Source: a virus. From it: 44,119 nt of DNA. The notes under the pieces are model-generated. The model was given only the letters and a program-made list of their open reading frames with translations, made no database searches and had not been told where the DNA came from. Below are positions 1,551 through 23,989 of this stretch, one piece after another (within the stretch, counting starts at the first letter, position 1; each line of letters begins with the position of its first letter). The stretch lies in the UHGV virus genome UHGV-0175781. One strand, given 5' to 3'. A program made the translations under genes and the position numbers.

Positions 1551-1597
1551 ATCACTGTCTCCGGGTATTAAAAAGGGCGTCCAAACCGGACACCCTC

Positions 1598-1626: not shown

Positions 1627-1631
1627 CCAAT

Positions 1632-1955
1632 TTACGAATAAAAATTTGGGTCGCGCGCAACGTCTACCAGATACAGGTTACTAATGCGGTTGCCATAGTG
1701 CCCTGGCGTGCGCTGGCGACACACAACGGCGTAGCCTGGAGGGATTGTATTGCCTGTCGCGATAATCCACGCCACGCGCGCTCCAGACAGCGTCTTGCCG
1801 TTGCACTCGATGCGCGTGCCACCATCGGCAGTGTTAAGGTTGCCGATCTTGCAGCCTGTGGATTTCAGGCGAATGACGCCGGTCTTGCTGTCGTAGGAAA
1901 AAAGCTGATTGGTCATTGCCACGGAAAAGTCGATGGCTTCGAATGTAGTATTCAT
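1632..1955 (-). CDS. HNH_3-like homing endonuclease-like protein, possibly degenerate
   Basis: 107 aa; pattern GK..ARVAW..TG...P.GY.VV....P...GNRISNLYLV resembles HNH_3 endonucleases but the usual His-Asp positions are replaced by CRQ. Confidence 0.4.
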   Translation of the reverse strand: MNTTFEAIDFSVAMTNQLFSYDSKTGVIRLKSTGCKIGNLNTADGGTRIECNGKTLSGARVAWIIATGNTIPPGYAVVCRQRTPGHYGNRISNLYLVDVARDPNFYS

Positions 1956-2647
1956 TTTAAATTTTCCTCATTGACCGCTATCGCGAAGCCGCGCGGGGTG
2001 AGCGACCTGATTAATTTGGTGCGGGCAGATTTGCCCCCGAGGCGACTATACTGCTTCGAGTACCCTTTTTCAACGAAAACAGGTTTCTTCTCTGGCATAC
2101 GGAAGCCGTTGCCGGTCCATAAGCAGGTCAGCTTCGGATATGAATCGCGGGCGTTGATGTATTCAGGGAATAACGGGTGTACGTCATCCTCTGGCAAATA
2201 GCCACCATACTCCCACGGGTCAAACGAGTGGTCCGGCTTACGCCATTGAGTGGATAGCACGCTGCGCGGATTCTCAATCATATATGGCACCTCAAAGAAA
2301 TCACCCAGGTAAGCGGCAATCTTCGCGGTGCGCACCGCCTTAAGCTGAAAGGCAGGGTCTTTAGCCCGCTTGCGCGGAAAAGCGGGCGCACCGCTAACTG
2401 CCAGATCCGTACACGGAGGGAACGCATATATGATATCCGGCGTACCGAAATCACCATTCATCGCGCGGTCCACGAAGTCCAGGTCTATAAACTCATTACG
2501 ATAGCGGATCCCGCGCCCATAAATCCGGTAGTCCAGGTACGATCCGTGGTCGGCTTCGGAGTAGTTGAAGCAAAAACACTTATGACCCATCTCGGCAGCA
2601 CGCTCAATCATCAAGCCGCTGCCGTCAAATAATGACCAGATAATCAT
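1952..2647 (-). CDS. short DNA (cytosine-5)-methyltransferase-like protein
   Basis: 231 aa; motif I FDGSG (FxGxG), motif IV FPPC..LAVSGA (cf. GPPCQ.FS.AG), motif VI ENP (cf. ENV); too short for a canonical target-recognition domain. Confidence 0.5.
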   Translation of the reverse strand: MIIWSLFDGSGLMIERAAEMGHKCFCFNYSEADHGSYLDYRIYGRGIRYRNEFIDLDFVDRAMNGDFGTPDIIYAFPPCTDLAVSGAPAFPRKRAKDPAFQLKAVRTAKIAAYLGDFFEVPYMIENPRSVLSTQWRKPDHSFDPWEYGGYLPEDDVHPLFPEYINARDSYPKLTCLWTGNGFRMPEKKPVFVEKGYSKQYSRLGGKSARTKLIRSLTPRGFAIAVNEENLK

Positions 2648-4068
2648 TTGCGCGCCTTTTTAGCTTTCATGTATTCCATCAAGTCGTCCTGAATATCTCG
2701 CTTACTGTCGCGACGCTCGGCGACCAGTTCGTCCAGTGTCCCGCGCGCCTGGATAATATAGACGAATACTGGACGGGGGTGTCCGGCTTGCATCTGGCGA
2801 ACCGGCCCTATACGCTCCACGATCTGCGAAAAGTGCTCAAAGTTCCAGGTATCGGAGAAGATAGCAAGGTGGTGCCCGCCATCCTGCAGGTTGAGGCCGT
2901 GACCCGCCGAGGCAGGGTGCGCAAACATGATGGGGATCTCGCCCCTATTCCACGCTTCCATATCCTTATTGCCCTGCTTGCCCTTGCCCAACGCAACGCC
3001 GTGCGGGAATTTCTTCTTGAGACGCGCCAGATCATGCTTGTATTGGTACGCGACGAGCAACGGTGCGCCGTTCAACTCCTCCGCGATACTTTCCAGCGCG
3101 TCCAGTTTAGCGTCGTGAATTTTCACCCATTCGTCGGTCCGTTCGCCGTCTTCGTCGACCTTATACACGGCCCCGGAAGCAAGCTGAAGGCACTTAATGG
3201 TCTTCGAAGCAGCGTTCGCCGCCTCCACCGTTCCGCTTTCCAGTTCGGCAAATAGCTCGCTTTCAAACTGGTCGTAGATCTTGCGGGCTTTCTTCGGCAG
3301 GTCCACAACAACCGGCGTATAGATTGGCTTGTCACATCCGAAGTATTCAGCCGCATCAACGGTGAGCGATACGTCAGACAGGCGTTGTTGTATTTCTTTC
3401 TCGGAGTTCTTAAGCGGGGCGTGCTGCATAGTAAAGCTGCCAGGCTTAACAGGCTTGCTAATAAACCAGCGATCAGTGAATGCCTTATAACTACTGCCGA
3501 GGCGTTCGCCGCCGTCGACAAACCACGTCTGACCCCACAGGTCTTTCAGTCCGTTTGGTGCGGGTGTGCCGGTCAGGTTAATCCAGCGCTTGACGTGCTT
3601 ATGTGCGATCGCTGCCAGCGCACGGGCACGCTTACTTCCCTGCTTGCTTCGATAACCTTTCAGCTTAGTGGATTCATCGGCAACAACGACCGTAAAGGGC
3701 CACGCATCGCCGTAATAGTCAACCAGCCACTCAACTACATCATAGTTAACACAAACTACGTTAGCGCCGCTCTCAAGCGCGGCTATACGGTCTTTTTCAG
3801 ACCCGGTGCCGTCTACTACCAGCAAGGCGGGGAATCGCCATTTTTCCTGTTCCGGGGGCCATGTGCCAGATGCAACGCGCAGCGGGGCCAGCACCAGTAC
3901 GCGGTCCTCCTGGTTGGACAGGATACCGGTCTGGAACATTTTATTCAGCGCCCACATGGTCGCGCCGGTTTTACCCGACCCCATTGTCGCCCATATATTG
4001 CATCGCTTATGCTTGAGGATGAACGCGGTTATCAACTTCTGATATTCGCGACGTCGGAAACGTGCCAT
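2644..4068 (-). CDS. SNF2/DEAD-like superfamily 2 ATP-dependent helicase (ORF extends to GTG at 4158; ATG at 4068 preferred)
   Basis: Walker A GSGKTGAT, DExx box VVADESTKLK, C-terminal SNF2-like helicase region (PASAGHGLNLQDGG...); start at 4068 avoids overlap with the well-supported gene 4073..4297. Confidence 0.8.
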   Translation of the reverse strand: MARFRRREYQKLITAFILKHKRCNIWATMGSGKTGATMWALNKMFQTGILSNQEDRVLVLAPLRVASGTWPPEQEKWRFPALLVVDGTGSEKDRIAALESGANVVCVNYDVVEWLVDYYGDAWPFTVVVADESTKLKGYRSKQGSKRARALAAIAHKHVKRWINLTGTPAPNGLKDLWGQTWFVDGGERLGSSYKAFTDRWFISKPVKPGSFTMQHAPLKNSEKEIQQRLSDVSLTVDAAEYFGCDKPIYTPVVVDLPKKARKIYDQFESELFAELESGTVEAANAASKTIKCLQLASGAVYKVDEDGERTDEWVKIHDAKLDALESIAEELNGAPLLVAYQYKHDLARLKKKFPHGVALGKGKQGNKDMEAWNRGEIPIMFAHPASAGHGLNLQDGGHHLAIFSDTWNFEHFSQIVERIGPVRQMQAGHPRPVFVYIIQARGTLDELVAERRDSKRDIQDDLMEYMKAKKARK

Positions 4069-4072
4069 ATCT

Positions 4073-4297
4073 TTATTCCGCCTTTTTCCAGACTTCGGTT
4101 TCACTGTTCCAGTTCCTTTTTGTGGCGTCATAGTTGGTGCTGTGCCCGATGTGTACACCCGTCGCCCGGAAGCTATTAAATTTTTGCCAGCACACCGTTA
4201 ACGGCAGCGGGTTATTCATGCCCGCGATAAACCATACGCGATCGCCTGGTTTGCATTCGCCCAGTGTGGTGAGTCGATAATGTTCTTTCATCGTCAT
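4073..4297 (-). CDS. hypothetical protein
   Basis: 74-aa ORF with GGAGA SD directly upstream of ATG 4297. Confidence 0.6.
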   Translation of the reverse strand: MTMKEHYRLTTLGECKPGDRVWFIAGMNNPLPLTVCWQKFNSFRATGVHIGHSTNYDATKRNWNSETEVWKKAE

Positions 4298-4303
4298 GTC
4301 TCC

Positions 4304-4327
4304 AAAAAATGGCGGGACAAGCCCGCC
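4304..4327 (-). terminator. hairpin (GGCGGG-loop-CCCGCC) plus T6 on minus strand; intra-operon attenuator-like
   Basis: seen in sequence between genes 4335..4508 and 4073..4297; contains one GGCGGGACAA iteron-like unit. Confidence 0.35.
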
Positions 4328-4334
4328 GTATTAA

Positions 4335-4508
4335 TTATTTTTGCTCTGCTCGGTAGCGGCGCTGCCGTTCGCGCTCTTTTTTATTGCGGCACGATTTGCA
4401 CTCTGCCCGATACCCGTCCGGGCTTCGCGCAGTCTTACCGGTGTATTTATGGAACTGGGACAGCGGTTTAACGCAGCCGCAATTACTGCAACGTTTTTCT
4501 TCAACCAT
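4335..4508 (-). CDS. small zinc-ribbon-like protein with basic C-terminus (probable start at internal ATG; ORF extends to 4580)
   Basis: CSNCGC...C..C cysteine pattern followed by KKERERQRRYR; GAGGA SD before the internal ATG. Confidence 0.45.
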   Translation of the reverse strand: MVEEKRCSNCGCVKPLSQFHKYTGKTARSPDGYRAECKSCRNKKERERQRRYRAEQK

Positions 4509-4548
4509 TTCTAAAATCCTCGATAGTGCTAACCGGCCCACTATACCG

Positions 4549-4827
4549 CTACGCGACCAACTCAGCAACCAATAAATCACAGTCTGCTATGTTGTCGATA
4601 ACGCGAACGTCCGCACCGCGGCGGGCCATTCGCTCATGTTCTCGTATCTGGTGCGGCTTCGGTTTTCCTCCGGGGCGCTTCACTTCGACGAACACTATTT
4701 TGCCGTTGATGATGATAATCAGATCGGGCGCACCCGCGCGCCCCTCCCATGCCACTTTACGGCAGAATCCGCCTACGGCTTTAACCAACTTCATAAGGTG
4801 ACTTTGGATCTTGCCTTCTGGTGTCAT
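4549..4827 (-). CDS. VRR-NUC domain nuclease (PD-(D/E)xK fold)
   Basis: 92 aa; GAPDLIII...GKIVFVEVKRPGG matches the VRR-NUC D...E.K core. Confidence 0.7.
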   Translation of the reverse strand: MTPEGKIQSHLMKLVKAVGGFCRKVAWEGRAGAPDLIIIINGKIVFVEVKRPGGKPKPHQIREHERMARRGADVRVIDNIADCDLLVAELVA

Positions 4828-5015
4828 TTGGTTTGCAATTCCACGTTACGCAGGCGGAGGTCTACCGACACATCAGATCGACCGGTCAGCGCCAGCGCCA
4901 GGTTTTCAGGAGTAACAAGTGCCGTAATGGTCTTGCCACGTTCCAGTCTAATGACGATTCGAATCTCGTCATTGTCCGTCGCGCCCGCGCGCATTATGCT
5001 CATTTCTGCTTTCAT
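4824..5015 (-). CDS. hypothetical protein (start at internal ATG; ORF extends to 5060 but would overlap polymerase stop)
   Basis: ORF track; internal Met 16 placed just downstream of the polymerase stop at 5020. Confidence 0.45.
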   Translation of the reverse strand: MKAEMSIMRAGATDNDEIRIVIRLERGKTITALVTPENLALALTGRSDVSVDLRLRNVELQTK

Positions 5016-5019
5016 AATA

Positions 5020-7311
5020 TTATTTCCTGTACCTGTACATAATGTCGCCTTCGGCGGCAAGTGGGAAGCCTTTCGCCCAAATAGGCAGGTCGCACATCAG
5101 CGCGCATAGCTCCTCGGTCGTGTAGTCGTCAGTATCCGGAACTTCGGTGATCAATTCATCGTGCACTGACAGGACGATCTCGTATCCCGCGGATTCAACG
5201 CCAGGCATGGACCATGCGAGGATATCGCGACACAGCGCCTGCACGATGTTTTCCGTCAGTTTGCCGCCGTAGGTATACTGGAAGCCCCACTGGCGCGTCG
5301 TCTGATTCTCGCCCTGGTATTTAATGCGGGTGCTGGTGCGTTTCTTGCCAGTATCTTCGTCGATCTCGGTAGTGACAGACAGCGCGATGCCCGGATAACT
5401 CATGATGCGCCCTGACGGCAACTCAATTTTAAGCCACCACCCCGCCGCGTTCGGGTCGTCGCGCTCCTCGTCGAAGGTTGGGTCATGCTTCGCCTTCGTG
5501 CGAACAATCTTAAGCGCTTTCCTGCCATCCGGGCGAACGTTCGCGCCAGCCCAGTACGCTTTGCCTGGATTGCGGATTGCACACAACACCGCGTCTTCCA
5601 GTTCGGCCCAAAAGGCTACCGTCTTCGGGTGGGCCTCACGCCACATACGTTTGATCGCGTCACACGTCAACCACACGTTTTTCGGCAGTATATAAGTTGG
5701 GCGCTCGTCCTTCTTGCCAGGCTTCGGCGGGCGCTTCGCTTCGTTGATTCGGGCGTACTCATAACCACGTTTCGCCGCCGCCCATATGTGGTCTGGGAAT
5801 GTGCCCTTCATCACGTCAGCCATCGCGTAAAGGTCGAGGCCCAGGTTTTTAGCGAACTGCAAGAACGCCGCAACGCCGCCGCCATAGCCTAGTCCCAATT
5901 CGCACGCCTTACCGATCTGGCGTAAGTCTTTGCGGTTGGCTTTAATGTATTCCGGGTCGAGGCCAAACATCTTACCGGCAGTTTCACAATAAATATCGCG
6001 ACCCGCCCTAAACACCATTAGCGCGGTTTTCTCGCCAGCGATCCAGGCGAGGCCACGCCCTTCCACGTTAGAATAGTCCGCTACGACAAACTTCTTTCCC
6101 TTAGCCGGAATAATGCACCCGCGAACGGTCGAGGCTGTTAACTTCGATATGTCATACGCCCAGTGTGCGGTCCCGCGTAACAGGGAGTTGATGCCGTTGG
6201 TAAGCATGTGCGACCGCACCCAAAACGCGACGTCGCTCTCGCCTTCACGGCGCTTAATCTTCCCTTCGTGGTCGTCGCTATACTCGCCGCGTGCCAGGTT
6301 TTGCGGCTGGAAGCCCTTACCGGCCCAGCGTAGCGTGCGCTTTGCCCCACCATACTGAAGACAACCACGGCGGCGACCATCGGCAGACAGCCCATTTACG
6401 AGCGGATTGTACTTAGTCGACGCCGTTGATGATGCCCCGAGGCGCATCTCGATAAGCACTTTGCCCTCGTCAGGGAAGTCTGGATCTTCAAGCAGGTCGT
6501 TAAGCGTGGATTTCTGCGCGTTGTGGATCGTGAACGCAGGCGCGAGGTCGCGCAGCGCGGGCAAGAAGTCATTGCCGGTCAGCTTACCGCCGAAGCGCTC
6601 CCAGGCTTCTTCCTTCAATTCTTCCTTATGCGCCTGCACCGCTTTGATCGCGGCGTTCGCCAGGTCAACGTCCACATAGAAGCCGCGGTCATTGATCAAC
6701 TGGTCAATAAGCAGGATTTCGTCTTCCTTCGGCGTGTTGCCCCAGTCCGGTATGCGCCAATAGACTTCCCTCATAGCGATGATATCCAACGCGGCATAGC
6801 GCAGGAATTTAGCCCACTCCTCGGGGTGCGTCTCGCGCGTGTAGCGGCGGATTTTGTAGGTCTTAGGGGTTGGCTTACAGAATCGTTTGATCAGCGCCTT
6901 GCCCGCCTTATCCTTCGCGTGCTCTGCGTCAACGCCCAACACCTGGCACTGCATATCGAGGCCACCCGGCAGCGCGTGTCGAAAGGCCATAATCATGGTG
7001 TCTTCGATCTGGCACACTGGCAGGTCAATGCCCCACTTCTCGCGAATGACCAGGCGGTCAAACAGGAGGCCGTTAGCCATCACTATTTTTGCTTTCTTGC
7101 GGGATACCCTGCGGAGCGCCTTGCGCAGTTCACGCGGCATTGTTGGGGACTCTGTGCAATCCCATGTCTGCACGCGGCCCTCGTCGATGGCGTAGGTGCA
7201 AATCATAATCTCGGTTGTTGGGTGCTCTGCGTAGGCGTATGCGCCCACTTTCTTCAGGTCCACCCCGCTAAATGTCTCGGTATCGAGAAAAAGGCGTTCG
7301 AAGTCTTTCAT
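5020..7311 (-). CDS. family A DNA polymerase (Pol I-like) with N-terminal 3'-5' exonuclease domain
   Basis: 763 aa; Exo I motif LFLDTETF; motif B K....GLGYGGG; motif C VLSVHDELITEV. Confidence 0.9.
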   Translation of the reverse strand: MKDFERLFLDTETFSGVDLKKVGAYAYAEHPTTEIMICTYAIDEGRVQTWDCTESPTMPRELRKALRRVSRKKAKIVMANGLLFDRLVIREKWGIDLPVCQIEDTMIMAFRHALPGGLDMQCQVLGVDAEHAKDKAGKALIKRFCKPTPKTYKIRRYTRETHPEEWAKFLRYAALDIIAMREVYWRIPDWGNTPKEDEILLIDQLINDRGFYVDVDLANAAIKAVQAHKEELKEEAWERFGGKLTGNDFLPALRDLAPAFTIHNAQKSTLNDLLEDPDFPDEGKVLIEMRLGASSTASTKYNPLVNGLSADGRRRGCLQYGGAKRTLRWAGKGFQPQNLARGEYSDDHEGKIKRREGESDVAFWVRSHMLTNGINSLLRGTAHWAYDISKLTASTVRGCIIPAKGKKFVVADYSNVEGRGLAWIAGEKTALMVFRAGRDIYCETAGKMFGLDPEYIKANRKDLRQIGKACELGLGYGGGVAAFLQFAKNLGLDLYAMADVMKGTFPDHIWAAAKRGYEYARINEAKRPPKPGKKDERPTYILPKNVWLTCDAIKRMWREAHPKTVAFWAELEDAVLCAIRNPGKAYWAGANVRPDGRKALKIVRTKAKHDPTFDEERDDPNAAGWWLKIELPSGRIMSYPGIALSVTTEIDEDTGKKRTSTRIKYQGENQTTRQWGFQYTYGGKLTENIVQALCRDILAWSMPGVESAGYEIVLSVHDELITEVPDTDDYTTEELCALMCDLPIWAKGFPLAAEGDIMYRYRK

Positions 7312-7478
7312 TGCTTAATCCTCACTACGGCGTCAGCGCTGCCGAACATGGAGAAGATACCGTCGGAAAGGGTTATCTCCTCGCCGTTGTTGCGAATCTC
7401 GGCAACGGTGAAATACTCGCCCAGCAATTTAGACCATACCTGCATTCCGACTTTTACTTCGCTGGCTTTAATGCGCAT
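7308..7478 (-). CDS. small hypothetical protein translationally coupled to the DNA polymerase (stop overlaps pol ATG)
   Basis: 56-aa ORF found by hand translation (below the ORF-track size cut-off); ATGA overlap with the polymerase start; AGGA SD. Confidence 0.4.
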   Translation of the reverse strand: MRIKASEVKVGMQVWSKLLGEYFTVAEIRNNGEEITLSDGIFSMFGSADAVVRIKQ

Positions 7479-7493
7479 TTTTCATTGTCCTAT

Positions 7494-7518
7494 TAAAAAG
7501 CCCGCATTAAGCGGGCTT
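7494..7518 (-). terminator. rho-independent terminator (AAGCCCGC-loop-GCGGGCTT plus T-run on minus strand)
   Basis: seen in sequence just downstream of the SSB-like gene stop at 7537. Confidence 0.55.
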
Positions 7519-7536
7519 GAATAGTGGGCTTTGCCC

Positions 7537-8259
7537 TTAACGGCGGCGACGTTTACGTGGCGCTTCGTCTTCGTCGTCGTCATCATCTTCGTCATCGCGT
7601 GGCTTACGACGTTTACGAGGTTTTTCATCTTCGTCATCGTCATCACGACGTTTTGACTTTTTGGACTTGCGTGGCACTTCATCTTCGTCGTCGTCGCCCA
7701 GGTCTTCGTCGGAGCAAGAAGATCCGCCACCGCCGAAGGCTTCGCCGTCATCGCGGAAGCGCAGACCCAAAAGACCGGCACCGAGTCCCTTGCCGTTGGT
7801 ATTGTTCCACGCCCAAATATCCAGGGACACGTTGCAATAACAACCGGAGTAGATCTCCTGGCCTTCGATCTCGTCGCCTTCTACGGTCAGACCTTGTTCA
7901 GTCTGCTTCTCGCCGAGTGACGTTTGAATGTTTGGCTGTTTGAACGATTTAGCGTTGATGTACAACATGCCTTCGAATTCTTCGGTTACTTCGTCGCGCT
8001 CGTCACCGTCGCGGACTGCGCATTCCTTAGAATCCTGGGCGTAGTGGCGGTCCATCCACTTATCAGCATTCTTCTCGGATTTCAGCTTGTCGGTGAGCAC
8101 TGCGCGCGCTGCCGCTTCCACTTTGTCCACCTGCGGATCTTCTTTATCAAGAAGAATCACTGCACGGTATGCCGGTTTTTGTCCATCCTGTTTAGGGGTA
8201 TCACGTTCCCAAATTTTAAGGAAACATACGCGCACATTTTTCAGGTTGACTTTAGCCAT
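7537..8259 (-). CDS. ssDNA-binding protein, DUF2815-like, with alternating acidic/basic C-terminal tail (ORF extends to 8280)
   Basis: core IYSGCYCNVSLDIWAWNNTNGKGLGAGLLGLRFRDDGEAFGG matches the DUF2815 phage SSB pattern; C-terminal 60 aa are blocks of DDDDEDE and PRKRRK. Confidence 0.6.
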   Translation of the reverse strand: MAKVNLKNVRVCFLKIWERDTPKQDGQKPAYRAVILLDKEDPQVDKVEAAARAVLTDKLKSEKNADKWMDRHYAQDSKECAVRDGDERDEVTEEFEGMLYINAKSFKQPNIQTSLGEKQTEQGLTVEGDEIEGQEIYSGCYCNVSLDIWAWNNTNGKGLGAGLLGLRFRDDGEAFGGGGSSCSDEDLGDDDEDEVPRKSKKSKRRDDDDEDEKPRKRRKPRDDEDDDDDEDEAPRKRRRR

Positions 8260-8349
8260 TTTCCAATTCCTCATTCTCACATGTATCGGGGTTATTATGA
8301 GCCACCCCGTTCGGCTTGGTTGCTAATCTACTTGGTTGCGCCTAAGCGG

Positions 8350-8592
8350 TCAAGCATTTTCATTAAAAAGATTTCGGGTCACGTAGTTGGTGGCGTTCTC
8401 GATCCAGCTTAGCGGCGGGCGTTCGATGTTATTTTCCACCCAATCGACGGCAACTTCGCTATAGCCGTCATCCAGCCCGCGGGTCGGATGGCGAATCATC
8501 CACGCCACCATTAACACGCCTTGCACGCAATGCAGGATAAAGCCCAGCGCGCCGAGCAAAAACATCAATAAGATTGCGAATACTTTATTCAT
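8350..8592 (-). CDS. small membrane protein
   Basis: 80 aa with N-terminal hydrophobic helix (FAILLMFLLGALGFILHCVQGVLMVAWMI). Confidence 0.5.
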   Translation of the reverse strand: MNKVFAILLMFLLGALGFILHCVQGVLMVAWMIRHPTRGLDDGYSEVAVDWVENNIERPPLSWIENATNYVTRNLFNENA

Positions 8593-10015
8593 TGCTTAAG
8601 TCCTCGTCAGTAGCTTCCGACCACGCAGGGCGAGGGTCGTCGATTGGTGCTAACACCGGTTTGGCTGGTGCGCGTGTGATTTTATCACACAGCTTCGCCC
8701 ACACTTTCGGTTTTTCGTCCTTCAGTACCTTCTCGGCATCCGTAGGGCTGAGCAATGTTTCTTTGTACATCACATCGCGCTTGATCCGGGCCTTCGTGAA
8801 GATTTCAATCACTTCGCTCTCGTCCGCCCACTTACGGATCCCTTCCCTACCGGCAACCATCTTAAGGCCCAACGATTCGCCATCGCCAGCCATGACCGCT
8901 TTGAATACCGCGGACTCGATAGCTTTGATGTGCTGGCGCATTGCGTCAAGTCCTTCATAAGCCTTGCGCAGTTCCGCCGCGCTCATAGCGCCGGGGGTGG
9001 ATTCCTTCTTGCCCCGTTTAGCACGTCTGGCAGCCTTCGGGGCTTCGCGGGCCATATTGCGGTCGTGGTTGGCGCACTCTTCCTCGGTTGCCACGCTCAC
9101 GTCGTCGCCCAGGTCTTCGTCGGTTGCCGTTGGTGGCGTCATCGTGTCGATTGCGGCCTTCGCCCGGACGCGGCACTGGTCCGCGAATCTGCACCACTGG
9201 CACGCATCAATGCTCGGTCGGAAGTCAGCGCGGGTTAGTCCCTTTTTGCCGCGTGCGTACGCATCGAGCGCGGCGATAGCGCGCTTGGACGCAAACTTCG
9301 CGAATATCTCCAGCGCTTCTACCGAAATATCCCACTCCGACGCCCCGCCGCAATACGGCTGGAAGATAACCAGGCGAACGGTCGTAATGTCGTACATAGT
9401 TTGCAGCTTGCGCAGCAGTCCGAGCGCGTACAACATAAGCTGTTTGTTCTCTTTCGCCTCGACCTTATGCCGCCCGGTCTTCAGGTCGCCAACAATCAGC
9501 ATGTACGTCCCATCGGTCTTTTTCATGACCATGACCATATCGGCAGTACCGAACGTTTTAATCCTGTTGCCGTCGATCTCGTAGCCTGAGTGAAGGACGC
9601 GGGTCAGATCGGCGCGCATCTCAAGCTGGACAAACTCCGCCACTTCGAGGAGCGGTCGCCAGTGGTCGATGTACGCGTCGCACTGTTTCACCATGTCGTC
9701 GTTGACCAGTACGCCGCCTTTCGGTGCTTTAGGGTGTGCCTTTACTGGCCCCTTGCCTTCGTTCTCGACGTAGCACCCTTTATACGTCTTCGCGGTTATC
9801 AGCTTCTCACCGGCGATAATGCGGTTTAGCACCACCTCAGATACGGTGTGCATACTCGTACCGTTAATCGCGGCTTGCCCGGATTCGTTCGGGATATCTT
9901 TTTCCACCACCAGGGCGGCAGGGCAACCCATCCATTTTTTAGCACCGGATGGGCCAAGTAATGAGTGTTCCGTATTGCTACCGGATTGCGTTTTACGTTT
10001 TGGTTTAATCGCCAT
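8585..10015 (-). CDS. PD-(D/E)xK Cas4/RecB-like exonuclease (DUF2800-like)
   Basis: 476 aa; N-terminal LLGPSGAKKWMGCP, VGDLKTG motif, C-terminal cysteine cluster CQWCRFADQC typical of Cas4/AddB-type nucleases. Confidence 0.7.
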   Translation of the reverse strand: MAIKPKRKTQSGSNTEHSLLGPSGAKKWMGCPAALVVEKDIPNESGQAAINGTSMHTVSEVVLNRIIAGEKLITAKTYKGCYVENEGKGPVKAHPKAPKGGVLVNDDMVKQCDAYIDHWRPLLEVAEFVQLEMRADLTRVLHSGYEIDGNRIKTFGTADMVMVMKKTDGTYMLIVGDLKTGRHKVEAKENKQLMLYALGLLRKLQTMYDITTVRLVIFQPYCGGASEWDISVEALEIFAKFASKRAIAALDAYARGKKGLTRADFRPSIDACQWCRFADQCRVRAKAAIDTMTPPTATDEDLGDDVSVATEEECANHDRNMAREAPKAARRAKRGKKESTPGAMSAAELRKAYEGLDAMRQHIKAIESAVFKAVMAGDGESLGLKMVAGREGIRKWADESEVIEIFTKARIKRDVMYKETLLSPTDAEKVLKDEKPKVWAKLCDKITRAPAKPVLAPIDDPRPAWSEATDEDLSNE

Positions 10016-10203
10016 TATTCCACCCTTGAAAACTGAGCAATGTAATATTCATGTTTAACCCCAGCCCGCTTCGCGGCTTCGTTCATGGTAGCCGCCAGTC
10101 CTCTGGCTTGAGTCCAGCAGCAATTCCAGTTCTGATTCATAACGATTTCCGGTTGCTCGTCGCCGGTAATACGGCAACGAAATAAAACAAAGAATATAGC
10201 CAT
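10015..10203 (-). CDS. hypothetical protein
   Basis: 62-aa ORF with GGGAGA SD; stop overlaps downstream ATG (TAATG). Confidence 0.5.
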   Translation of the reverse strand: MAIFFVLFRCRITGDEQPEIVMNQNWNCCWTQARGLAATMNEAAKRAGVKHEYYIAQFSRVE

Positions 10204-10455
10204 TTATTTTGTCTCCCAGCGGTCAATTGTTTTTGCTTCGGATGCAACTGCAAAGCGAACATATTCCAGATTGGAGTCCGCCCAAATAAAAAAGTCGGGG
10301 TTAGTAAAGGTGGTGCGCTTAATTTGCGCGGGGGTGTTACGGCGTTTATCTATTACGGCAACGCGTGACTGAAAGCTGCCGATGCGTTCGAATAGCCAAT
10401 AGTACGGGCGCTGGTCGCGGGAATCCACCGCCTCGATTAGCGTGAAGCGTGCCAT
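10204..10455 (-). CDS. hypothetical protein
   Basis: 83-aa ORF with AGAGGA SD. Confidence 0.55.
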   Translation of the reverse strand: MARFTLIEAVDSRDQRPYYWLFERIGSFQSRVAVIDKRRNTPAQIKRTTFTNPDFFIWADSNLEYVRFAVASEAKTIDRWETK

Positions 10456-10467
10456 TGTCTCGTCCTC

Positions 10468-10495
10468 TAAAAATAGGCCCGCAGATTAGCGGGCC
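10468..10495 (-). terminator. hairpin (GGCCCGC-AGATTA-GCGGGCC) plus T-rich run on minus strand, after the first early gene
   Basis: seen in sequence between 10504 and 10455. Confidence 0.4.
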
Positions 10496-10503
10496 GGATA
10501 ATA

Positions 10504-11043
10504 TTAGTCTTCCAGTTCGAAATAGGTTTCGACGATTTCTTTCAGGTCTTTGTGGAAGTCTTCTACGTCGTCATCTTCCAGTTTAGCGATTGATTTGATC
10601 TCGAACGCTTCCAGCAGGTCGTCGAATTCGTCGTTCGCATCGTCGTCATCGCCACCGGCAATAATCGCGGCATACTGTTTGATTTCGTCGCGCATCTCTG
10701 CCAGCGGGTCGGCATCTTTCTTACCTTTGCCTTTCGCTGGTGCTTTTTTACCCTTCGCCGGTTTTTCGTCTTCGTCATCCTCGTCGTCATCCTCTACGAC
10801 TTCTTTTTTAGCCTTACCTTTAGACTTGGTTTCTTTTGCCGCGCCTTTTTTCGTTTTAGGCGTATCTTCGACTTCGTCCTGATCGTAGTCGTCTTCGACT
10901 TCAGTCTCCGGCTTGGCCTTGCCCTTCTTAGCAGTGCCGTTTGCTTTTGGGTCTACGGCAGCGCCAACAGTTTCATAATGTTTAGCGATGGTTTCCAGTG
11001 CTACTACGCCGCGAGTAATCAGGTTTATGAATTGTTCCAACAT
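10504..11043 (-). CDS. highly charged, low-complexity early protein (acidic blocks alternating with lysine-rich blocks)
   Basis: 179 aa; first gene downstream of the near-consensus leftward promoter; GGAGA SD. Confidence 0.6.
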   Translation of the reverse strand: MLEQFINLITRGVVALETIAKHYETVGAAVDPKANGTAKKGKAKPETEVEDDYDQDEVEDTPKTKKGAAKETKSKGKAKKEVVEDDDEDDEDEKPAKGKKAPAKGKGKKDADPLAEMRDEIKQYAAIIAGGDDDDANDEFDDLLEAFEIKSIAKLEDDDVEDFHKDLKEIVETYFELED

Positions 11044-11248: not shown

Positions 11249-11277
11249 TTGACACCTTGCGGTTTTAGGTGTAGTTT
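11249..11277 (+). promoter_or_regulatory. putative rightward promoter (-35 TTGACA, 17-bp spacer, weak -10 TAGTTT)
   Basis: seen in sequence upstream of gene 11309..11638. Confidence 0.3.
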
Positions 11278-11308
11278 CGTTGGTCATCAACCAACCGGAG
11301 ACAGAATA

Positions 11309-11638
11309 ATGAATATCAACGACGCAATCGAAATGTTAACGAAGACTGTTTGCAGTGAGACAAGCCGGTCATGGGCGTATACCGATGCCGTGGGTGCGGT
11401 GCTATTTGAAATCGAACGTCTGCGACTTACCGAAAAAGAATTGCGCGCCAGGCTGGAATTGCTCAACGGTACGGCGGCGAGCAAGCTGCAGAAGCACAAT
11501 GAAGAAATGGAAGAATACAAAAAACAGGTTATCCGTTTGCGCGCCGAGGGCAAATCTTGGGCGATGATTGCCGAGTTGACCGGAATTAATCAGAGCACAG
11601 TGCGCTCCTGGGTACGCAATAATAAAACTTCCAAATAA
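11309..11638 (+). CDS. HTH DNA-binding protein (candidate regulator or replication helper; ORF extends to 11249)
   Basis: C-terminal helix-turn-helix GKSWAMIAELTGINQSTVRSWV; GGAGA SD before ATG 11309. Confidence 0.6.
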   Translation: MNINDAIEMLTKTVCSETSRSWAYTDAVGAVLFEIERLRLTEKELRARLELLNGTAASKLQKHNEEMEEYKKQVIRLRAEGKSWAMIAELTGINQSTVRSWVRNNKTSK

Positions 11639-11642
11639 GGCT

Positions 11643-13913
11643 ATGACCATGAGTTTAATTAAATTCGCCGTAACAAGACCCGCTAAAAAAGGCGAAAAAG
11701 CCAGGGCGGAAAACTTCCAGATGACTACCGAAGAGTTTTTCGAATTTATCAATGATGCGAAAGAAATCTCCTCGGTGCATATCAACAAGACGGAAGATAA
11801 AGCCGAGTATGCGCGCCGCAAGCGTAAGGCCGACGGCATCGTGGCGTATACCAGTGACGGATTGCGTCGTAAGACCAGTGCGGTGGACCGCTCGATCCTG
11901 TTCTTCGATATTGACCGCACCGACACCCGCACCCTACGCCGCTGCCGTAAGGCGTTCATTGACGCGGGTCTTGAACACGTATTTCACACCACAACCGGCG
12001 ACCGTCACCCACTGAAAGGTGGAACACGTTGCGCTCGCTTCCTGGTGTTGACGGACAAGCCTGTACCGGCTGAAGACCTGGGACGCGCCCAGTATGCCCT
12101 GTTAGCCCAACTGGGTCTGTCAGATGTGGACTTCGACGATTGCACGAAAGACACAAACCGCCTGATGTACCTGCCACACCAGCAGTCTGTAATAAAGTGT
12201 CATTACGGCAAACGTGCCCGCGTCCGTCGTCTGCTTCGCCTGGCGGATAAGCTGGGGGTGGATAAAGAGGAAGTACGCCGCGAACTAACCAAGGGAGACG
12301 ACGAAGTGGCGGACGGCATTCTGGACTGGTGCTTCCAGGCAGGATTCGAACCACTGTCGTCCGGGCGTGGTTATGAGGTGCCGTGCCCGAACGAACATCT
12401 GCACAGCGGCGAAGGGTCCACCGCCATAATGGTTAAGGATGGCGAGATCCGTTTCAAGTGTATGCACACCGGAAACGAGTGTTGCTCGGAACTGAACAGA
12501 CACCAGCACCTGGCGCTACGTCTTATCGGGATCCCGGACCACCTGAACGTCGAGCCACACAATATGTCCCGTAAGCAAATCGCCGCCATCCTTCCGGGGC
12601 TGGACGACGAGGAAGTGGAGTCGTGCTATGAACATATTGTTGATGCGGTTGGCGACGGCGAAGAATACGGCGTGTGCACCGATGCGGATCTGGATAACGA
12701 GCCGGTTGCGCTGTTCAGTAAGCACGACCCGATCATCGAGGGGTTGATTAACTTTAAATCGACCTGGTACATGGCTGGCGAGTCGAATATCGGTAAGTCT
12801 TTCTATGTGCTTGGGCAGATGGGCGCGGTTGCCGCCGGTATTCCGTTTGGCGGTGCGAAGGTCGTCCAGTCTCATTGCTTCTATTTCGACGCGGAAGGTG
12901 GCGAAGCCTCCAACCAGCGCAAAGAAGCATTGCAGATTAAATACGAGCACGACCTGGACAAGCTGCACATTATCGACCTGCAATCACGCGGCTGGGATAT
13001 CACAAGCAAGTCCGGCTTGCGTGAAGTTATCAGCTTCATCAATCGCACCGCTAACGGTGAACCTGTTGGCCTGGTGGCGTTCGACTCACTCAACCAGACT
13101 GTTGCGCTGCGGTCCGCCGATGCTAAACCGTTTGACGAGAACAACGCCAGCGATATGGGTGAAGTGGTCAAAGCGCTGAAAGCCATTGCGGAAAATACAG
13201 GTGGCAGTGCGGGCGTCATCCACCACCCGGCGAAGGGTGCAAACGGCAGCAGAACCCCACGCGGGTCCGGCGCGCTGCATGGTGCTGTCGATTCAGCGTT
13301 CTTCCTGGAACAGCCGGACGACAACCAGCCCGGGCAATTGAACCTGTATCATGAGAAGTCACGTAACGGCATCAAGCAAGCGCCGCGCGGCTTCGTCCTG
13401 CTCAAGTGCAAGGTGAAGGTAGATCTCCGCAAGTCAGAAGCGTTCGAGGCGCACCAGTCCACCAGCACTGGGCCAGACTTCGGCGACGTGGTTGCCGGAT
13501 GGGACGTCAAGCCGATTGCCTCCACGCCTCGCGACGAGACTCTCTACCTCGTACCGGTTGCCCTGGCACCGTTCGCTATAGAACAGGCGAAGGCAGCAGG
13601 CAAGGCCGCGGTTAAGGAAGAGAACACCGCCGGACCGCGCAACGAAAAAGAGAAAGTGCTTTATGCGGCCCTGGAAAAACTGATGGAAGATAACCCGGAC
13701 CATACTGGATTCAGTAAATCGGCAATTGTCCGCCAGGCCGGACTCGCGAAAGGTGGCACATCGACGAAGGCAATCGACGATATGGTCGAGCGCGGCGTAC
13801 TCGGTTTTTATACAGATCCGCACACTGGGGCCATCTATGGGTCGTCGAATATCGTCATCAAAACGAATATACCCATCACGCTTTCGGCGACCGATGACGA
13901 CCTGAAAGATTAA
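11643..13913 (+). CDS. DNA primase/helicase (AEP-type primase-like N-terminus, zinc-binding region, C-terminal RecA-fold ATPase)
   Basis: 756 aa; LFFDIDR acidic motif; Cys/His cluster CPNEHLHSGEGST...CMHTGNECC; Walker A GESNIGKS; Walker B LVAFDSL. Confidence 0.75.
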   Translation: MTMSLIKFAVTRPAKKGEKARAENFQMTTEEFFEFINDAKEISSVHINKTEDKAEYARRKRKADGIVAYTSDGLRRKTSAVDRSILFFDIDRTDTRTLRRCRKAFIDAGLEHVFHTTTGDRHPLKGGTRCARFLVLTDKPVPAEDLGRAQYALLAQLGLSDVDFDDCTKDTNRLMYLPHQQSVIKCHYGKRARVRRLLRLADKLGVDKEEVRRELTKGDDEVADGILDWCFQAGFEPLSSGRGYEVPCPNEHLHSGEGSTAIMVKDGEIRFKCMHTGNECCSELNRHQHLALRLIGIPDHLNVEPHNMSRKQIAAILPGLDDEEVESCYEHIVDAVGDGEEYGVCTDADLDNEPVALFSKHDPIIEGLINFKSTWYMAGESNIGKSFYVLGQMGAVAAGIPFGGAKVVQSHCFYFDAEGGEASNQRKEALQIKYEHDLDKLHIIDLQSRGWDITSKSGLREVISFINRTANGEPVGLVAFDSLNQTVALRSADAKPFDENNASDMGEVVKALKAIAENTGGSAGVIHHPAKGANGSRTPRGSGALHGAVDSAFFLEQPDDNQPGQLNLYHEKSRNGIKQAPRGFVLLKCKVKVDLRKSEAFEAHQSTSTGPDFGDVVAGWDVKPIASTPRDETLYLVPVALAPFAIEQAKAAGKAAVKEENTAGPRNEKEKVLYAALEKLMEDNPDHTGFSKSAIVRQAGLAKGGTSTKAIDDMVERGVLGFYTDPHTGAIYGSSNIVIKTNIPITLSATDDDLKD

Positions 13914-13988
13914 TTTTTGCGCGCATTGGTTGCCGGTATGGGAATTCCCATATCGCTAAGAGATTAATTTTTGCGCGCATTGGTTGCC
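13907..13988. repeat. two 28-bp direct repeats (AGATTAATTTTTGCGCGCATTGGTTGCC) flanking a 14-bp perfect palindrome ATGGGAATTCCCAT
   Basis: seen in sequence; first repeat overlaps the primase/helicase stop codon; a third partial copy (CGCATTGGTTGCC) at about 14011. Confidence 0.7.
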
Positions 13989-14071
13989 ATTTTGAGTGTT
14001 TTTAGCTGGTCGCATTGGTTGCCGTGTGATGTAAATATAATGCATAGTTATGCAATAAAACTGCATAAACC

Positions 14072-14231
14072 AAACGGGACAAAAAGCGGGACAAACAGGA
14101 GGCGGGACAAAGCGGGACAGCACCCCTGTCCCGCCAGTGCTGCCGCGGCTTCCAGAGGAGCGGGACAGCGGGACAGCACCCCAGTCTTTCAGACTAGACG
14201 GGGGGTCTGGCACCCCCCTCGTCTGAGACTG
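14072..14231. repeat. iteron array copy 1: at least 7 GCGGGACA(R) units (one inverted pair) followed by a ~50-bp bulged hairpin
   Basis: seen in sequence; about 85% identical to 30330..30491; flanked by CTGCATAAA boxes and an AT-rich tract. Confidence 0.8.
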
Positions 14232-14390
14232 CATAAAATCCAGGATTGCAAAATACACGGCAGCATGTTGTGGATTGCGGTCGTCACTGAACTAGGCAAC
14301 CAATACGAGTTGCAGAATGGTGGGTGAGAAATGCCGTTTGCAGTCACAACTGATAGCGATCAACTTTTTCATGCGCGTGATTAATATTGG

Positions 14391-14419
14391 TTGCATTCGC
14401 GCCAGCACCCTGCTAGATT
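14391..14419 (+). promoter_or_regulatory. putative promoter (-35 TTGCAT within ATTGGTTGCAT, 17-bp spacer, -10 TAGATT)
   Basis: seen in sequence about 30 bp upstream of gene 14448. Confidence 0.4.
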
Positions 14420-14447
14420 GGTTGCACACCAACAAGAGGACTGAACA

Positions 14448-14714
14448 ATGGCACACAAAGACCTGGTAGACGAATTGATTGAACTGCTCGAGGCTGAGGA
14501 CAATGAGGACCTTCAAGAGAGCGCGGAACACGAAGACCTGGCAGACGTATTGCTTGAACTGATCGAGGCTGAGAAAAATGCGGACCTTAAAGCGCGTGCG
14601 GCGCACATACTCGGCAACTTCAAGAAAGAGCACCGTTACGAAGCTATGCGCGTCTCGGCGCAAGAAGCGCTGATTAATTTCCTGAATAGCGTAACCATCA
14701 CGAAGAAGGACTGA
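14448..14714 (+). CDS. small acidic protein with internal tandem duplication
   Basis: 88 aa; strong SD AAGAGGA; two ~23-aa repeat units (DLVDELIELLEAEDNEDL / DLADVLLELIEAEKNADL). Confidence 0.6.
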   Translation: MAHKDLVDELIELLEAEDNEDLQESAEHEDLADVLLELIEAEKNADLKARAAHILGNFKKEHRYEAMRVSAQEALINFLNSVTITKKD

Positions 14715-15020: not shown

Positions 15021-15290
15021 ATGGACCGTAGGCGAGCTAAACAGCTTTCGTGGTACATTCCCCTCCACTGCATACGAATATGGGCTGAGAATGCGATTGA
15101 GGGCGATTCTGTGTTCTGGAGCTACCGCGATGATGTGAAGCCATTAACGCAGACCCGCTACTTGCGCCAGTTCGCCAGGGAGCATGGGTTATCCATAAAA
15201 ACGTCCTTGCAACCAATTGGCATTCGTATTACATTACGCCGGAAGCCCGCCGTTGAGCGGGTAGGCAAACACTGGAGACTGAGAAAATGA
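15021..15290 (+). CDS. hypothetical protein
   Basis: 89-aa ORF with AAGGGG SD. Confidence 0.5.
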   Translation: MDRRRAKQLSWYIPLHCIRIWAENAIEGDSVFWSYRDDVKPLTQTRYLRQFAREHGLSIKTSLQPIGIRITLRRKPAVERVGKHWRLRK

Positions 15291-15505
15291 CACCAGCACT
15301 AATGGCGGGATTCTCGCAGAAGTTTATTTCTGTTGATGCCCGCATAGCAGATTATGAGATGAACGGCATCGCCACTGTGTGCGATGGCGACACGAAAACT
15401 GTCGAAGAACTAGAAGACTGCGAGCATGACTTCGGGGAGTTTGCCGATGACCCGAACTATGATGATTACCTGGTGTGCCGCAAATGCGGCTGTGTTAAAC
15501 TTTAA
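15287..15505 (+). CDS. small cysteine-containing acidic protein
   Basis: 72-aa ORF with GGAGA SD; C-terminal CRKCGC. Confidence 0.5.
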   Translation: MTPALMAGFSQKFISVDARIADYEMNGIATVCDGDTKTVEELEDCEHDFGEFADDPNYDDYLVCRKCGCVKL

Positions 15506-15561
15506 AGGTGCCGTGGCGGCAGCATGAAAGCCATTTTCGATTAATTATGCAAGCGTGATAT

Positions 15562-15596
15562 AGTCCCAGTGAGCTAAAACTTACTGGGACTTTTTT
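15562..15596 (+). terminator. hairpin (AGTCCCAGT-12 nt loop-ACTGGGACT) plus T6, abutting the holin start codon
   Basis: seen in sequence. Confidence 0.45.
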
Positions 15597-15887
15597 ATGG
15601 ATAAGCTAAACGAGTGGCTATTCGCCCTGGCATGTCTGGCGGGGGGCTTCGTAGGCGCACGCATTCATGATGAGGCTACGAAGGGGCCGCTAAACTTCGT
15701 TTTGTATGTTGTAGTTGGCTTCCTGTGTGCCATATTTGGCGCACCGGCTATCGCTGAGTGGGCTGGTTTGTCGGGGGAGCGCACTGTCGCCGGTTTGGGC
15801 TTCGTAACTGCCATCTTCTGGATGCCAATAGCTGACCGGATCCGGGAGACAATTGCGACGCTACACCTTCCGGGGGGCGCAAAATGA
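15597..15887 (+). CDS. holin-like membrane protein (about 3 transmembrane segments)
   Basis: 96 aa; three hydrophobic stretches and a charged C-terminus; directly upstream of the endolysin. Confidence 0.6.
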   Translation: MDKLNEWLFALACLAGGFVGARIHDEATKGPLNFVLYVVVGFLCAIFGAPAIAEWAGLSGERTVAGLGFVTAIFWMPIADRIRETIATLHLPGGAK

Positions 15888-16129
15888 TTATCTCCGTCCT
15901 GTTGTTTGTTATCATCGGGGCTTCGTCCCTGTTTAACGTGTATGCGCCGTCCGTCCAGGATGGCATCTTAGGCCGGGTGCTGTATCTGTTAACGGCAATG
16001 ATCTGTCTTATTGGACTGTTGCAAACAGGAGACGTATCGGATACCACCTGGACCGCGTTAATCTGGCTGTTTGCATTGCGCACCCTGCGTAATGCTGTTT
16101 TAAATGGGGTAAAACATGCGATTCAGTGA
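15884..16129 (+). CDS. second holin/antiholin-like membrane protein
   Basis: 81 aa, mostly hydrophobic; overlaps holin stop and endolysin start. Confidence 0.5.
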   Translation: MIISVLLFVIIGASSLFNVYAPSVQDGILGRVLYLLTAMICLIGLLQTGDVSDTTWTALIWLFALRTLRNAVLNGVKHAIQ

Positions 16130-16607
16130 TAACGGTCTACGATTTACGGCAGCATGGGAGGCTTTCAGCCCGGTGCCGTATTTCGCGACCAAGAAAGAGC
16201 AGGCCCGCGGCCTGTACACCTGGGGTTATGGTCATACTGGCACTAATCCGCCACGAAGCATTACCCGCGAGGAAGCGCTGGCATTGCTCAAGCGCGATGT
16301 GGCGTATGCCGAGGGCTGGGTGAACAAATACGCACATCCGAGCATTAACCAGGCGCAATTTGACGCGCTGGTGGACCTGGTAATCAACGCCGGTCCGGGT
16401 CCGATCGTACCGGATGGCGTCGCGAATGATTTCGATGACGCGGTGCGGTTGGGCGACTGGGCGAAGGTACGTGCTACGCTGCCGCTGTTCCGCAAGCAAG
16501 GCGGGGAAGTGCTTAAGGGTCTGGTGCGCCGTGCAATCGGCAGACAGGCGTTGTTTGATGGTAAGCAGTGGGACGTTGCCGAGAAAATCGGGCGTAACGC
16601 CGCATAA
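16116..16607 (+). CDS. endolysin, GH24 lysozyme (T4 / lambda R type)
   Basis: 163 aa; WEAF...GLYTWGYGHTG matches the GH24 catalytic region; no N-terminal signal-anchor. Confidence 0.85.
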   Translation: MRFSDNGLRFTAAWEAFSPVPYFATKKEQARGLYTWGYGHTGTNPPRSITREEALALLKRDVAYAEGWVNKYAHPSINQAQFDALVDLVINAGPGPIVPDGVANDFDDAVRLGDWAKVRATLPLFRKQGGEVLKGLVRRAIGRQALFDGKQWDVAEKIGRNAA

Positions 16608-23923: not shown

Positions 23924-23989
23924 TTTTATGTCCTCATTGTTGGTGTGCAACCAATATAGCGCAACCAATTCCCGCAGTGCAAGCGAATT

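Follow-up and report, generated by a model that had tools for sequence, protein, structure and literature searches.

A duplicated CGGGACA repeat module as the probable replication origin of Dhillonvirus phages, with a candidate binding domain in the helicase-primase

What is the function of a compact array of short repeats that a phage carries behind its helicase-primase gene and then, nearly unchanged, a second time among its tail genes? We addressed this question in the virus genome UHGV-0175781 (44,119 nucleotides, here referred to in full as "the window"). An earlier note, made from the sequence alone, had described the non-coding DNA at 14072–14231 as the first copy of an iteron array with an adjoining hairpin, and had read it as an origin of replication. 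The source phage is an E. coli Dhillonvirus of the HK578/SO-1 type; about 159 GenBank phage records match it at 80–95% identity, nearly all of them Dhillonvirus (HK578, SO-1, JL1, SSL-2009a and others). Judging from comparisons of sequence, the element is probably an iteron-type replication origin, unusual in that the phage has two complete copies of it. As far as the searchable literature shows, the origin of Dhillonvirus was previously unmapped; we found no mapped origin there. Searches on Dhillonvirus, HK578, SO-1 and Guernseyvirinae returned no published analysis of the unit, its binding protein or its distribution, and the repeat sequence itself, used as a literature query, matched only primer lists. 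In the accessible part of the SO-1 GenBank record (NC_013600), the same two loci are annotated as repeat_region "region A" and "region B", with direct, inverted and palindromic repeats and mutual similarity noted; that entry is an annotation note only. We keep these names, copy 1 being region B and copy 2 being region A.

The repeat is strongly enriched in the window. GCGGGACA has 17 exact matches on the two strands, against a mean of 2.01 and a maximum of 7 in 100 dinucleotide-preserving shuffles; two intergenic regions account for 13 of the matches (6 at 14086–14175 and 7 at 30180–30437). The core of the unit is the 7-mer CGGGACA, which is present six or seven times per module. Copy 1 has seven units, six direct on the plus strand and one inverted, at the positions that the earlier note had listed. 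Iterons 1–4 start at 14075, 14087, 14103 and 14113 (14075–14119, plus strand; start-to-start spacing 12, 16 and 10), and the unit at 14075 reads ACGGGACA, not GCGGGACA. The inverted unit (14127–14133, minus strand) forms the palindrome GCGGGACAGCACCCCTGTCCCGC (14112–14134) together with iteron 4. A GC-rich variable spacer (14134–14160, about 72% GC) then leads to iterons 5 and 6, which abut at 14161 and 14169 (14161–14175, plus strand). The array is followed by an imperfect 50-bp palindrome (14182–14231) made of a 24-nt arm CAGTCTTTCAGACTAGACGGGGGG (14182–14205), a 7-nt loop (14206–14212) and a 19-nt arm CCCCCCTCGTCTGAGACTG (14213–14231), with a G-run/C-run apex and AGTCT/AGACT repeats on its flanks. 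An AT-rich tract (14020–14074, 30–35% GC), which is a candidate DNA-unwinding element, precedes the array and holds the palindrome TGCATAGTTATGCA (14044–14057) and a TGCATAAA box (14062–14069). The GC content is 30–35% at 14020–14079 and 70–72% at 14100–14179, while that of the genome is 54%. ACTGCATAAA boxes stand at 14060 and 14228, and CTGCATAAA (14229–14237) and ACGGCAGCA (14257–14265) form boxes on the right border, on the plus strand. The inverted pair, the imperfect palindrome, the flanking boxes and the AT-rich tract were all found where the earlier note had placed them, and so was the array as a whole, described as just downstream of the primase/helicase, since it begins 160 bp past the stop codon of that gene (11643–13913, plus strand).

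The second complete module occupies 30323–30496 on the plus strand, about 16 kb from the first. Its identity to 14062–14236 is 87.2% over 179 bp by BLAST, and the mean column identity is 87% by MAFFT. It comprises TGCATAAA at 30323, iterons at 30336, 30348, 30363, 30373, 30422 and 30431, an imperfect inverted unit at about 30386 and a hairpin at 30443–30491, and its AT-rich flank has 35% GC at 30300–30339. The recurrence claimed earlier, at 30330–30491 with about 85% identity, is real. Not listed in the earlier note are two further clusters of direct and inverted iterons (30180–30212 and 30259–30291) in the left part of region A (30176–30300), which enclose an AT-rich stretch with TGCATAA (30245).

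We then analyzed the conservation of the module. The alignment contained 24 copies of regions A and B from 12 Dhillonvirus genomes and one more distant contig, and conservation was scored on 22 of them after one truncated and one duplicate copy had been dropped. Units 1–3 are invariant (1.0) and units 4–5 are 96–97% conserved; five of the six units scored 0.96–1.0, and the sixth is offset by 1 nt in the alignment. The spacers are conserved at 0.72–0.93 (0.78 for the spacer at 14120–14160) and contain 1-nt indels, therefore no reading frame runs through the module. Conservation is 96% and 98% in the hairpin arms and 75% in the loop, whose length is variable. It reaches 99% in the TGCATAAA box, which has a matching TGAATAGTTATGCA box in Guernseyvirinae-type relatives, and the inverted half-unit is kept in variable form in other copies, e.g. 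GCGGGACGTCCCGC. Both the units and the palindrome thus bear the footprint of sequence-specific recognition. The stems are invariant within the genus and are therefore uninformative on base pairing there. All 159 related GenBank records carry the module, in 334 places in total and nearly always twice, which bears out the expectation that the unit would recur in related genomes; most Dhillonvirus contigs of IMG/VR also have two loci per contig.

The same 7-mer is not confined to this genus. We scanned IMG/VR for two GCGGGACA within 12 nt, which listed at least 120 stretches. Among these listed matches, the fetched Dhillonvirus loci and the window, 52 sequences have at least five CGGGACA in 300 bp, and their GC content ranges from 41 to 71%; all counts that follow refer to this set. 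Some of the 52 loci are the same phage twice, and the number of independent lineages is nearer 28. We clustered the open reading frames (ORFs) neighbouring the arrays without prior assumption. A replication gene was found at 39 of the 52 arrays. Twenty lie at or just beyond the 3' end of an AAA_25 helicase-primase homologue, 12 lie inside a gene of 230–330 aa of the PHROGs categories "replication initiation O-like" or "DnaD-like helicase loader", six come just after a Toprim/AAA "DNA primase" gene of 620–766 aa (3–282 bp from its end) and one adjoins another primase. The remaining loci are three Dhillonvirus regions A, one coding pentapeptide repeat and eight without an assigned gene. By our own estimate, a random site in a 40-kb phage borders such a replication gene about 5% of the time. 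Because 39 of 52 arrays stand at replication genes against about 5% by chance, the CGGGACA repeat is, on this comparative evidence, tied to replication initiators and not to late operons or terminases. A hidden Markov model of the O-like initiators, searched against the neighbouring ORFs, matched only spurious translations of the repeats.

Two further loci of the scan deserve mention. The densest array among the listed matches, on an IMG/VR contig of 65% GC (L091, 4560–4900), has about 20 CGGGAC(A) in 300 bp, many of them in abutting palindromes GTCCCGGGAC, and its neighbour, at a distance of about 1 kb, is an FtsK/SpoIIIE-like gene and not a primase-helicase; this may be a different use of the motif, e.g. 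an actinomycete plasmid or phage transfer or replication locus. The "array" at 6660–6930 of contig L046 is a false positive, namely a coding tandem repeat CGCAGACCTGTCCCG with a 15-nt period in a pentapeptide-repeat-like protein.

Which protein could read the units? A protein search yielded about 190 homologues of the helicase-primase, and we examined the DNA around six of them. All six relatives share the layout of divergent promoters, small helix-turn-helix (HTH) gene, helicase-primase, a gap of 290–650 bp and late genes, and each gap contains a short-repeat array and, behind it, a hairpin whose apex is a G-run/C-run. Both the repeat and the residues at the start of putative helix 3 of the helicase-primase C-terminal domain vary by lineage. 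The window itself (100%) combines CGGGACA with TSTK, and L134 (69% identity) combines CGGGACA and the same hairpin with TNTT. AGGGACA goes with RRRP in L137 (46%), AGGGATA with NRRP in L138 (43%), GGGGAGA (seven units, one inverted) with DRYK in Cornellvirus FSL SP-031 (L132, 44%), GGGATC-like inverted pairs with KRRP in L136 (46%), and six ACTCGCA with NYKK in L133 (49%). The start residues of the putative recognition helix are thus seen, in these sequences, to change in step with the repeat by lineage. The hairpin arms also switch concordantly by lineage, e.g. AGTCT/AGACT versus TCCTC/GAGGA, with the fold retained, and a G/C-apex hairpin with different arms is present in five other lineages. 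Dhillonvirus and L134 have a small HTH protein of the HTH_23/Sigma70_r4 type, but in the other relatives this protein belongs to the HTH_3 type. It is thus the helicase-primase, and not the small HTH protein, that tracks the array.

The helicase-primase (756 aa) is the candidate initiator, and its domains support this proposal. The N-terminal part (aa 1 to about 300) models as an AEP/PrimPol primase with a Cys/His cluster, related to RSF1010 RepB', and the matched PDB entry is a complex with initiator DNA. A RepA-like helicase of the Pfam family AAA_25 follows at aa 359–533. The last ~110 residues form a separate domain in the helicase-primase alignment, and the AlphaFold model of residues 645–756 contains three helices and a beta-hairpin (H-H-H-beta-beta) with a core pLDDT of 85–90. 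The top Foldseek matches of this domain in the PDB are all winged-helix DNA-binding domains (MarR family, LexA, histone H1), with a probability of 0.98–1.0 and E of 0.02–0.1, the modest E values being due to the small size of the domain. Its coding region (13644–13859, plus strand; aa ~668–739) is the predicted iteron-reading head. Going by the model and the covariation by lineage, the C-terminal winged helix is likely the best candidate iteron binder. The small HTH protein, which an HTH_3 protein replaces in relatives that keep the architecture, is not the likely binder, and neither is the N-terminal domain, which has a primase fold. The dedicated binding protein that the earlier note had expected is accordingly predicted by the covariation of repeat and helix, but at another place than the HTH protein or the primase/helicase N-terminal domain it had named.

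Comparison with known systems places this protein in a familiar context. Bacteriophage lambda ori resembles the module in that short initiator-binding repeats stand in or beside the initiator gene, together with an AT-rich tract and a palindrome; the 12 unrelated arrays inside a lambda-O-like gene even repeat the location of lambda ori inside O. The O protein of lambda uses its N-terminal domain to read iterons that are inverted repeats of about 19 bp, and it recruits host DnaB by way of P. In the window, the units are 7–8 bp and mostly direct, helicase and primase are part of the putative initiator itself, and the array is found past the gene, not inside it. RSF1010 offers the parts, as a RepA-type helicase and a RepB'-type AEP primase are also present here, and a functional parallel, since it splits among RepC (iteron binding), RepA (helicase) and RepB' (hairpin-specific primase) what here appears to be united in one protein. 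In RSF1010, the initiator is a separate protein, the iterons are 20 bp long and the two ssi hairpins are on opposite strands, versus a fused winged helix, units of 7–8 bp and one palindromic hairpin per module here. RepB' reads ssiA and ssiB. P4 offers the plan: its ori and crr share with our phage the one-protein organization, iterons of octamer size and two separated iteron regions per genome. P4 needs the second region, crr, in cis, an established requirement that Ziegelin and Lanka reportedly described in 1995 (cited in PMC4234260). The P4 alpha protein has primase, helicase and a C-terminal winged-helix origin-binding domain in one polypeptide (PMC2777425, PMC4234260). However, its primase is of the Toprim/DnaG type and its helicase belongs to superfamily 3, while the modelled folds here are AEP and RepA/AAA_25, so that the two proteins would be analogous rather than homologous; moreover, the P4 regions ori and crr are not alike, in contrast to the two fully paralogous modules (87% identity) of our phage. 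ORF904 of the archaeal plasmid pRN1 likewise joins an AEP prim-pol, a helicase and a C-terminal winged helix. The origin of pRN1 occupies the non-coding DNA directly behind this gene, and replication requires a stem-loop in it; the authors mention similar arrangements in bacteriophages (PMC4234260). pRN1 differs in having no iterons, a 100-nt stem-loop and a superfamily 3 helicase (PMC2777425, PMC4234260). The modelled helicase-primase of the window would thus follow the plan of P4 alpha and pRN1 ORF904, built from RSF1010-like parts.

From these elements we propose the following mechanism. The helicase-primase would bind the CGGGACA units via its C-terminal winged helix, and several protomers on the six direct and one inverted unit would distort the DNA and open the adjacent AT-rich tract. 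This opening would allow the near-invariant imperfect palindrome to extrude as a hairpin, the RepA-like helicase ring would load onto the exposed single strand, and the N-terminal AEP primase would make the first primers for the phage's own PolA-type polymerase. The extruded single-stranded DNA hairpin may serve as the entry site of helicase or primase. Because both arms are near-invariant, bulges included, the hairpin might be read as a specific structure, as RepB' reads its ssi sites; this is the least certain step of the mechanism, and we consider it rather less likely than not. A candidate sigma-70-type promoter, TTGGTT-15 nt-TATAAT (14016–14039, plus strand), was picked out by eye; it reads into the origin core, its TATAAT/TATAGT is kept in the region-B copies of other genomes, and it could provide transcriptional activation as at lambda ori. 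Our analysis shows how the module is built and conserved, its association with replication genes and the folds predicted for the protein; binding, melting, extrusion, priming and the role of copy 2 are inferred.

Several points weigh against an origin. Neither marker-frequency nor footprint nor origin-cloning results for any Dhillonvirus were found in the searchable literature. The units are spaced irregularly (8–16 bp), unlike the helically phased iterons of many plasmids. The cumulative GC skew turns near 11 kb at the divergent promoter region and not at the modules, although skew is uninformative on the origin because it follows gene orientation. When the winged helices of the three CGGGACA-associated initiator families were compared, hhalign aligned the same helix in register, but with a probability below 2%. 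Both modules lie within the rightward transcription unit and their iteron palindromes are annotated as terminators elsewhere, which makes a transcriptional side-role possible, and a second complete origin within a tail operon has no obvious rationale. Set against these are the conservation footprint, the cross-phage link with replication genes and the arrays of relatives at the same position, which together support the iteron-type phage origin that the earlier note had put forward.

The strongest rival, though improbable, is a transcription control element: activator or repressor sites for middle or late transcription, or a terminator/antiterminator cassette that uses the hairpin, marking the early–late boundary at copy 1 and the start of the tape-measure/tail-tip operon at copy 2. 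Both copies do lie at operon boundaries, oriented with transcription; ATTGGTTGC promoter-like motifs and TTGGTT-N15-TATAAT flank copy 1, GenBank records call the iteron palindromes terminators, a terminator-like site, the only one in region A, was found on the minus strand at 30280–30260, and the HK578 record has no annotated late promoter. Yet our scans gave no sigma-70 promoter in either region (the promoter scan demands a spacer of 16–18 nt and so misses TTGGTT-N15-TATAAT) and no terminator-like site at 13800–14600, and the large hairpin of copy 1 is followed by CATAAAATCC instead of a T-run. The CGGGACA arrays of unrelated phages, moreover, lie in or beside replication genes and even inside initiator reading frames, relatives of the same gene order lack the second copy, and the identity of the repeat tracks the lineage of the helicase-primase and not that of the small HTH regulator. 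Transcriptional control may exist as a side-function alongside the origin. A structured cis-acting RNA from the plus strand, such as a put-like antiterminator, a GGGACA protein-sponge RNA or an mRNA stabiliser, is very improbable. The 175-nt stretch folds better than its shuffles (z = −3.2 and −3.4), is oriented as the flanking genes and has the candidate promoter just upstream of copy 1, but the minus strand folds equally well or better in seven of eight hairpins with 0–2 G-U pairs, so there is no strand signature. Invariant Dhillonvirus stems offer no covariation evidence and the spacers vary freely, no Rfam 15 family matched at gathering score in the whole window (the best sub-threshold match in region B, at E<=1, has 19 bits versus 65.3), a tRNA/tmRNA scan found none, and an RNA would leave the cross-phage link with replication genes unexplained. 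Neither alternative raised in the earlier note, a late-transcription enhancer or a structured RNA, thus gained positive support overall.

Recognition sites of terminases are often short-repeat arrays, and the two regions or their vicinity contain the ends of several related GenBank records, which would suit a packaging signal, i.e. repeats bound by the terminase small subunit at a pac or cos site. The terminase genes are 4 kb downstream of copy 1, however, and the arrays associate across phages with replication genes, not with terminase genes. PhageTerm gave a 10-nt 5' cos end ATCTTAAGGG for Dhillonvirus EE09 (PMC10673088). This sequence has no exact match in the window, and its four one-mismatch matches all lie outside the modules (the nearest at 29935–29944, about 240 bp upstream of region A); we regard packaging as the most remote of the explanations. 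The last rival accepts copy 1 as the origin and regards copy 2 as a regulatory decoy or partner that titrates or pairs with the initiator, in the manner of P1 incA handcuffing or P4 crr. The single module after the helicase-primase gene in sister lineages, the extra inverted iteron clusters in region A but not in region B, and the precedent of crr fit this idea. Copy 2, however, keeps the AT-rich tract, the TGCATAAA box and the hairpin at the conservation of copy 1, which a pure titration site would not need, and we give the idea a low probability.

Returning to the two-copy origin, how the second module arose can be partly read from the distribution. In Cornellvirus FSL SP-031, the GGGGAGA array is found only behind the helicase-primase gene, and an exact hairpin is present just once in the sister contig of 69% identity. 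Because these relatives have a single module, region B is ancestral and region A a Dhillonvirus-specific duplicate that was retained under selection with all its parts. By analogy, region A is probably one or the other of a second origin and a partner site like P4 crr or plasmid handcuffing. A clear signal of concerted evolution was not seen, the A–B identity being 0.826 within genomes and 0.818 between genomes (with two region-A copies misclassified). Copy 1 of the window bears the spacer CCAGTGCTGCCGCGG (14120–14150), otherwise typical of region-A copies, while other region-B copies have CCCCGGATGACGCGG, and this spacer suggests local conversion between the two modules in this lineage. A broader joint reading, which we think rather unlikely, is that many unrelated phages share a GGGAC(A) code because one small winged-helix head was shuffled among at least three initiator architectures (O-like loaders, AAA_25 helicase-primases and Toprim primases), and that the Dhillonvirus modules came to cooperate after copying into the tail operon, either by looping like that of P4 ori and crr or by coupling the passage of the fork to tape-measure and tail-tip expression. 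The invariant hairpin of the origin would in that case also be what hairpin-detecting defences such as OLD or Lamassu sense.

The database records of the modules also vary. Escherichia virus TH11 (L128, MT446389.1) has a tandem duplication of region A at 15109–16312, with modules at 15561 and 16076 and hence three modules in its genome, and three places are also present in the records of Maverick, JL1, PNS1, StarDew and CHD5UKE2. The HK578 record annotates the left part of region A, a locus within the SO-1 "region A", as a "rho-independent terminator", the CS16 GenBank record has a "terminator" at the position of the inverted iteron of copy 1, and several related records annotate "hypothetical proteins" over the non-coding modules. 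Many linear GenBank records begin or end in or near the modules: Kente inside the region-A hairpin, welsh, Sponge and BEK2-2 near region A, while SP1, BMA1, Zar3M and Pandora71 end about 85 bp past the region-B core. Such record ends probably reflect assembly breaks at the repeat or conventions common to the records rather than physical termini.

As for the genomic surroundings, leftward genes occupy 1–11043 (including DNA polymerase, SSB, exonuclease and methylases), and the rightward genes start from the divergent promoter region at about 11.1 kb with the small HTH protein gene (11249–11638, plus strand; HTH_23/Sigma70_r4 type in Pfam) and the helicase-primase gene. A 534-bp non-coding gap containing copy 1 follows, and then small genes, lysis genes, terminase, and head and tail genes. 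Copy 2 sits in a 384-bp gap (30176–30559) that separates the tape-measure gene from the tail chaperone genes. The stretch 29862–30175 upstream of region A is coding, not intergenic, and represents the frameshifted T part of the tail chaperone. The tail-chaperone pair (29850–30175) resembles the classic G/GT programmed −1 frameshift, with a GAAAAAAA run just before the stop of the 29451–29861 ORF; an in-frame extension of this ORF, lacking a start codon and left blank in the ORF list, reaches 30175 (SO-1 gp16, DUF1799).

Short motifs other than the iterons were also observed. TGCATAA/TTATGCA boxes, including the palindrome TGCATAGTTATGCA, flank the iteron–hairpin core, and two more stand just upstream of the tape-measure start codon (all of them at 14044–14069, 14230, 30245, 30323, 30537 and 30554). 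The flanking boxes are conserved between Dhillonvirus and Guernseyvirinae-type relatives (L132, 12330–12370; L138, 3830–3860) although the iterons differ, and must have a conserved reader, perhaps a host factor or the primase Cys/His cluster. A DnaA-box reading of TTATGCAC was rejected, as the key position is not constant among copies. The (C)ACGGCAGCA box (14256–14265) occurs about 25–60 bp past the hairpin in region B, and likewise in L132, L133, L136, L137 and L138, but is absent in region A. Three direct repeats ending in ATTGGTTGCC (13902–14023, plus strand) carry a promoter-like motif that is found at many intergenic sites of the phage. The window contains ATTGGTTGC(A/C) as 16 exact copies, most of which precede genes and which often stand in pairs just before gene starts (1606–1631, 4565, 11111, 13925–14022, 14296, 14386–14425, 15209, 23947–23969, 40695 and 43811). 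Several of these sites can be read as a −35-like TTGCAx, 15–17 nt and a −10-like hexamer, and twice the motif gives ATTGGTTGCACACCAACAA(G/T)GAGGA directly ahead of a ribosome-binding site (14417 and 23955). We regard the motif as a probable promoter or operator signature of this phage itself; relatives carry other motifs at these places (GTTGGCAGC in L136 and GTTGGC in L132).

Iteron origins are a familiar class, so the finding fills a gap and overturns nothing; the full duplicate in the tail operon, the conserved hairpin and the 7-mer common to several initiator architectures are points of moderate interest. One 7-mer marks replication modules across very different GC contents, and repeat and recognition helix are swapped between relatives, which would give a practical rule for locating phage origins and make the relatives a natural series for studying change in DNA recognition. 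One protein and a site of about 165 bp would also be a compact, self-contained replicon design for engineering. HK578 mutants that evade OLD, a defence which the authors link to origin hairpins, carry their changes in the helicase-primase and its promoter (bioRxiv 10.64898/2026.07.10.737580). This agrees with the origin reading, and the origin proposed here would help account for these mutations. Dhillonviruses are common phages of E. coli, Shigella and Salmonella that are used in defence-system screens and considered for therapy, and an origin with a named binding domain would make replication dissectable in Dhillonvirus and the related Guernseyvirinae.

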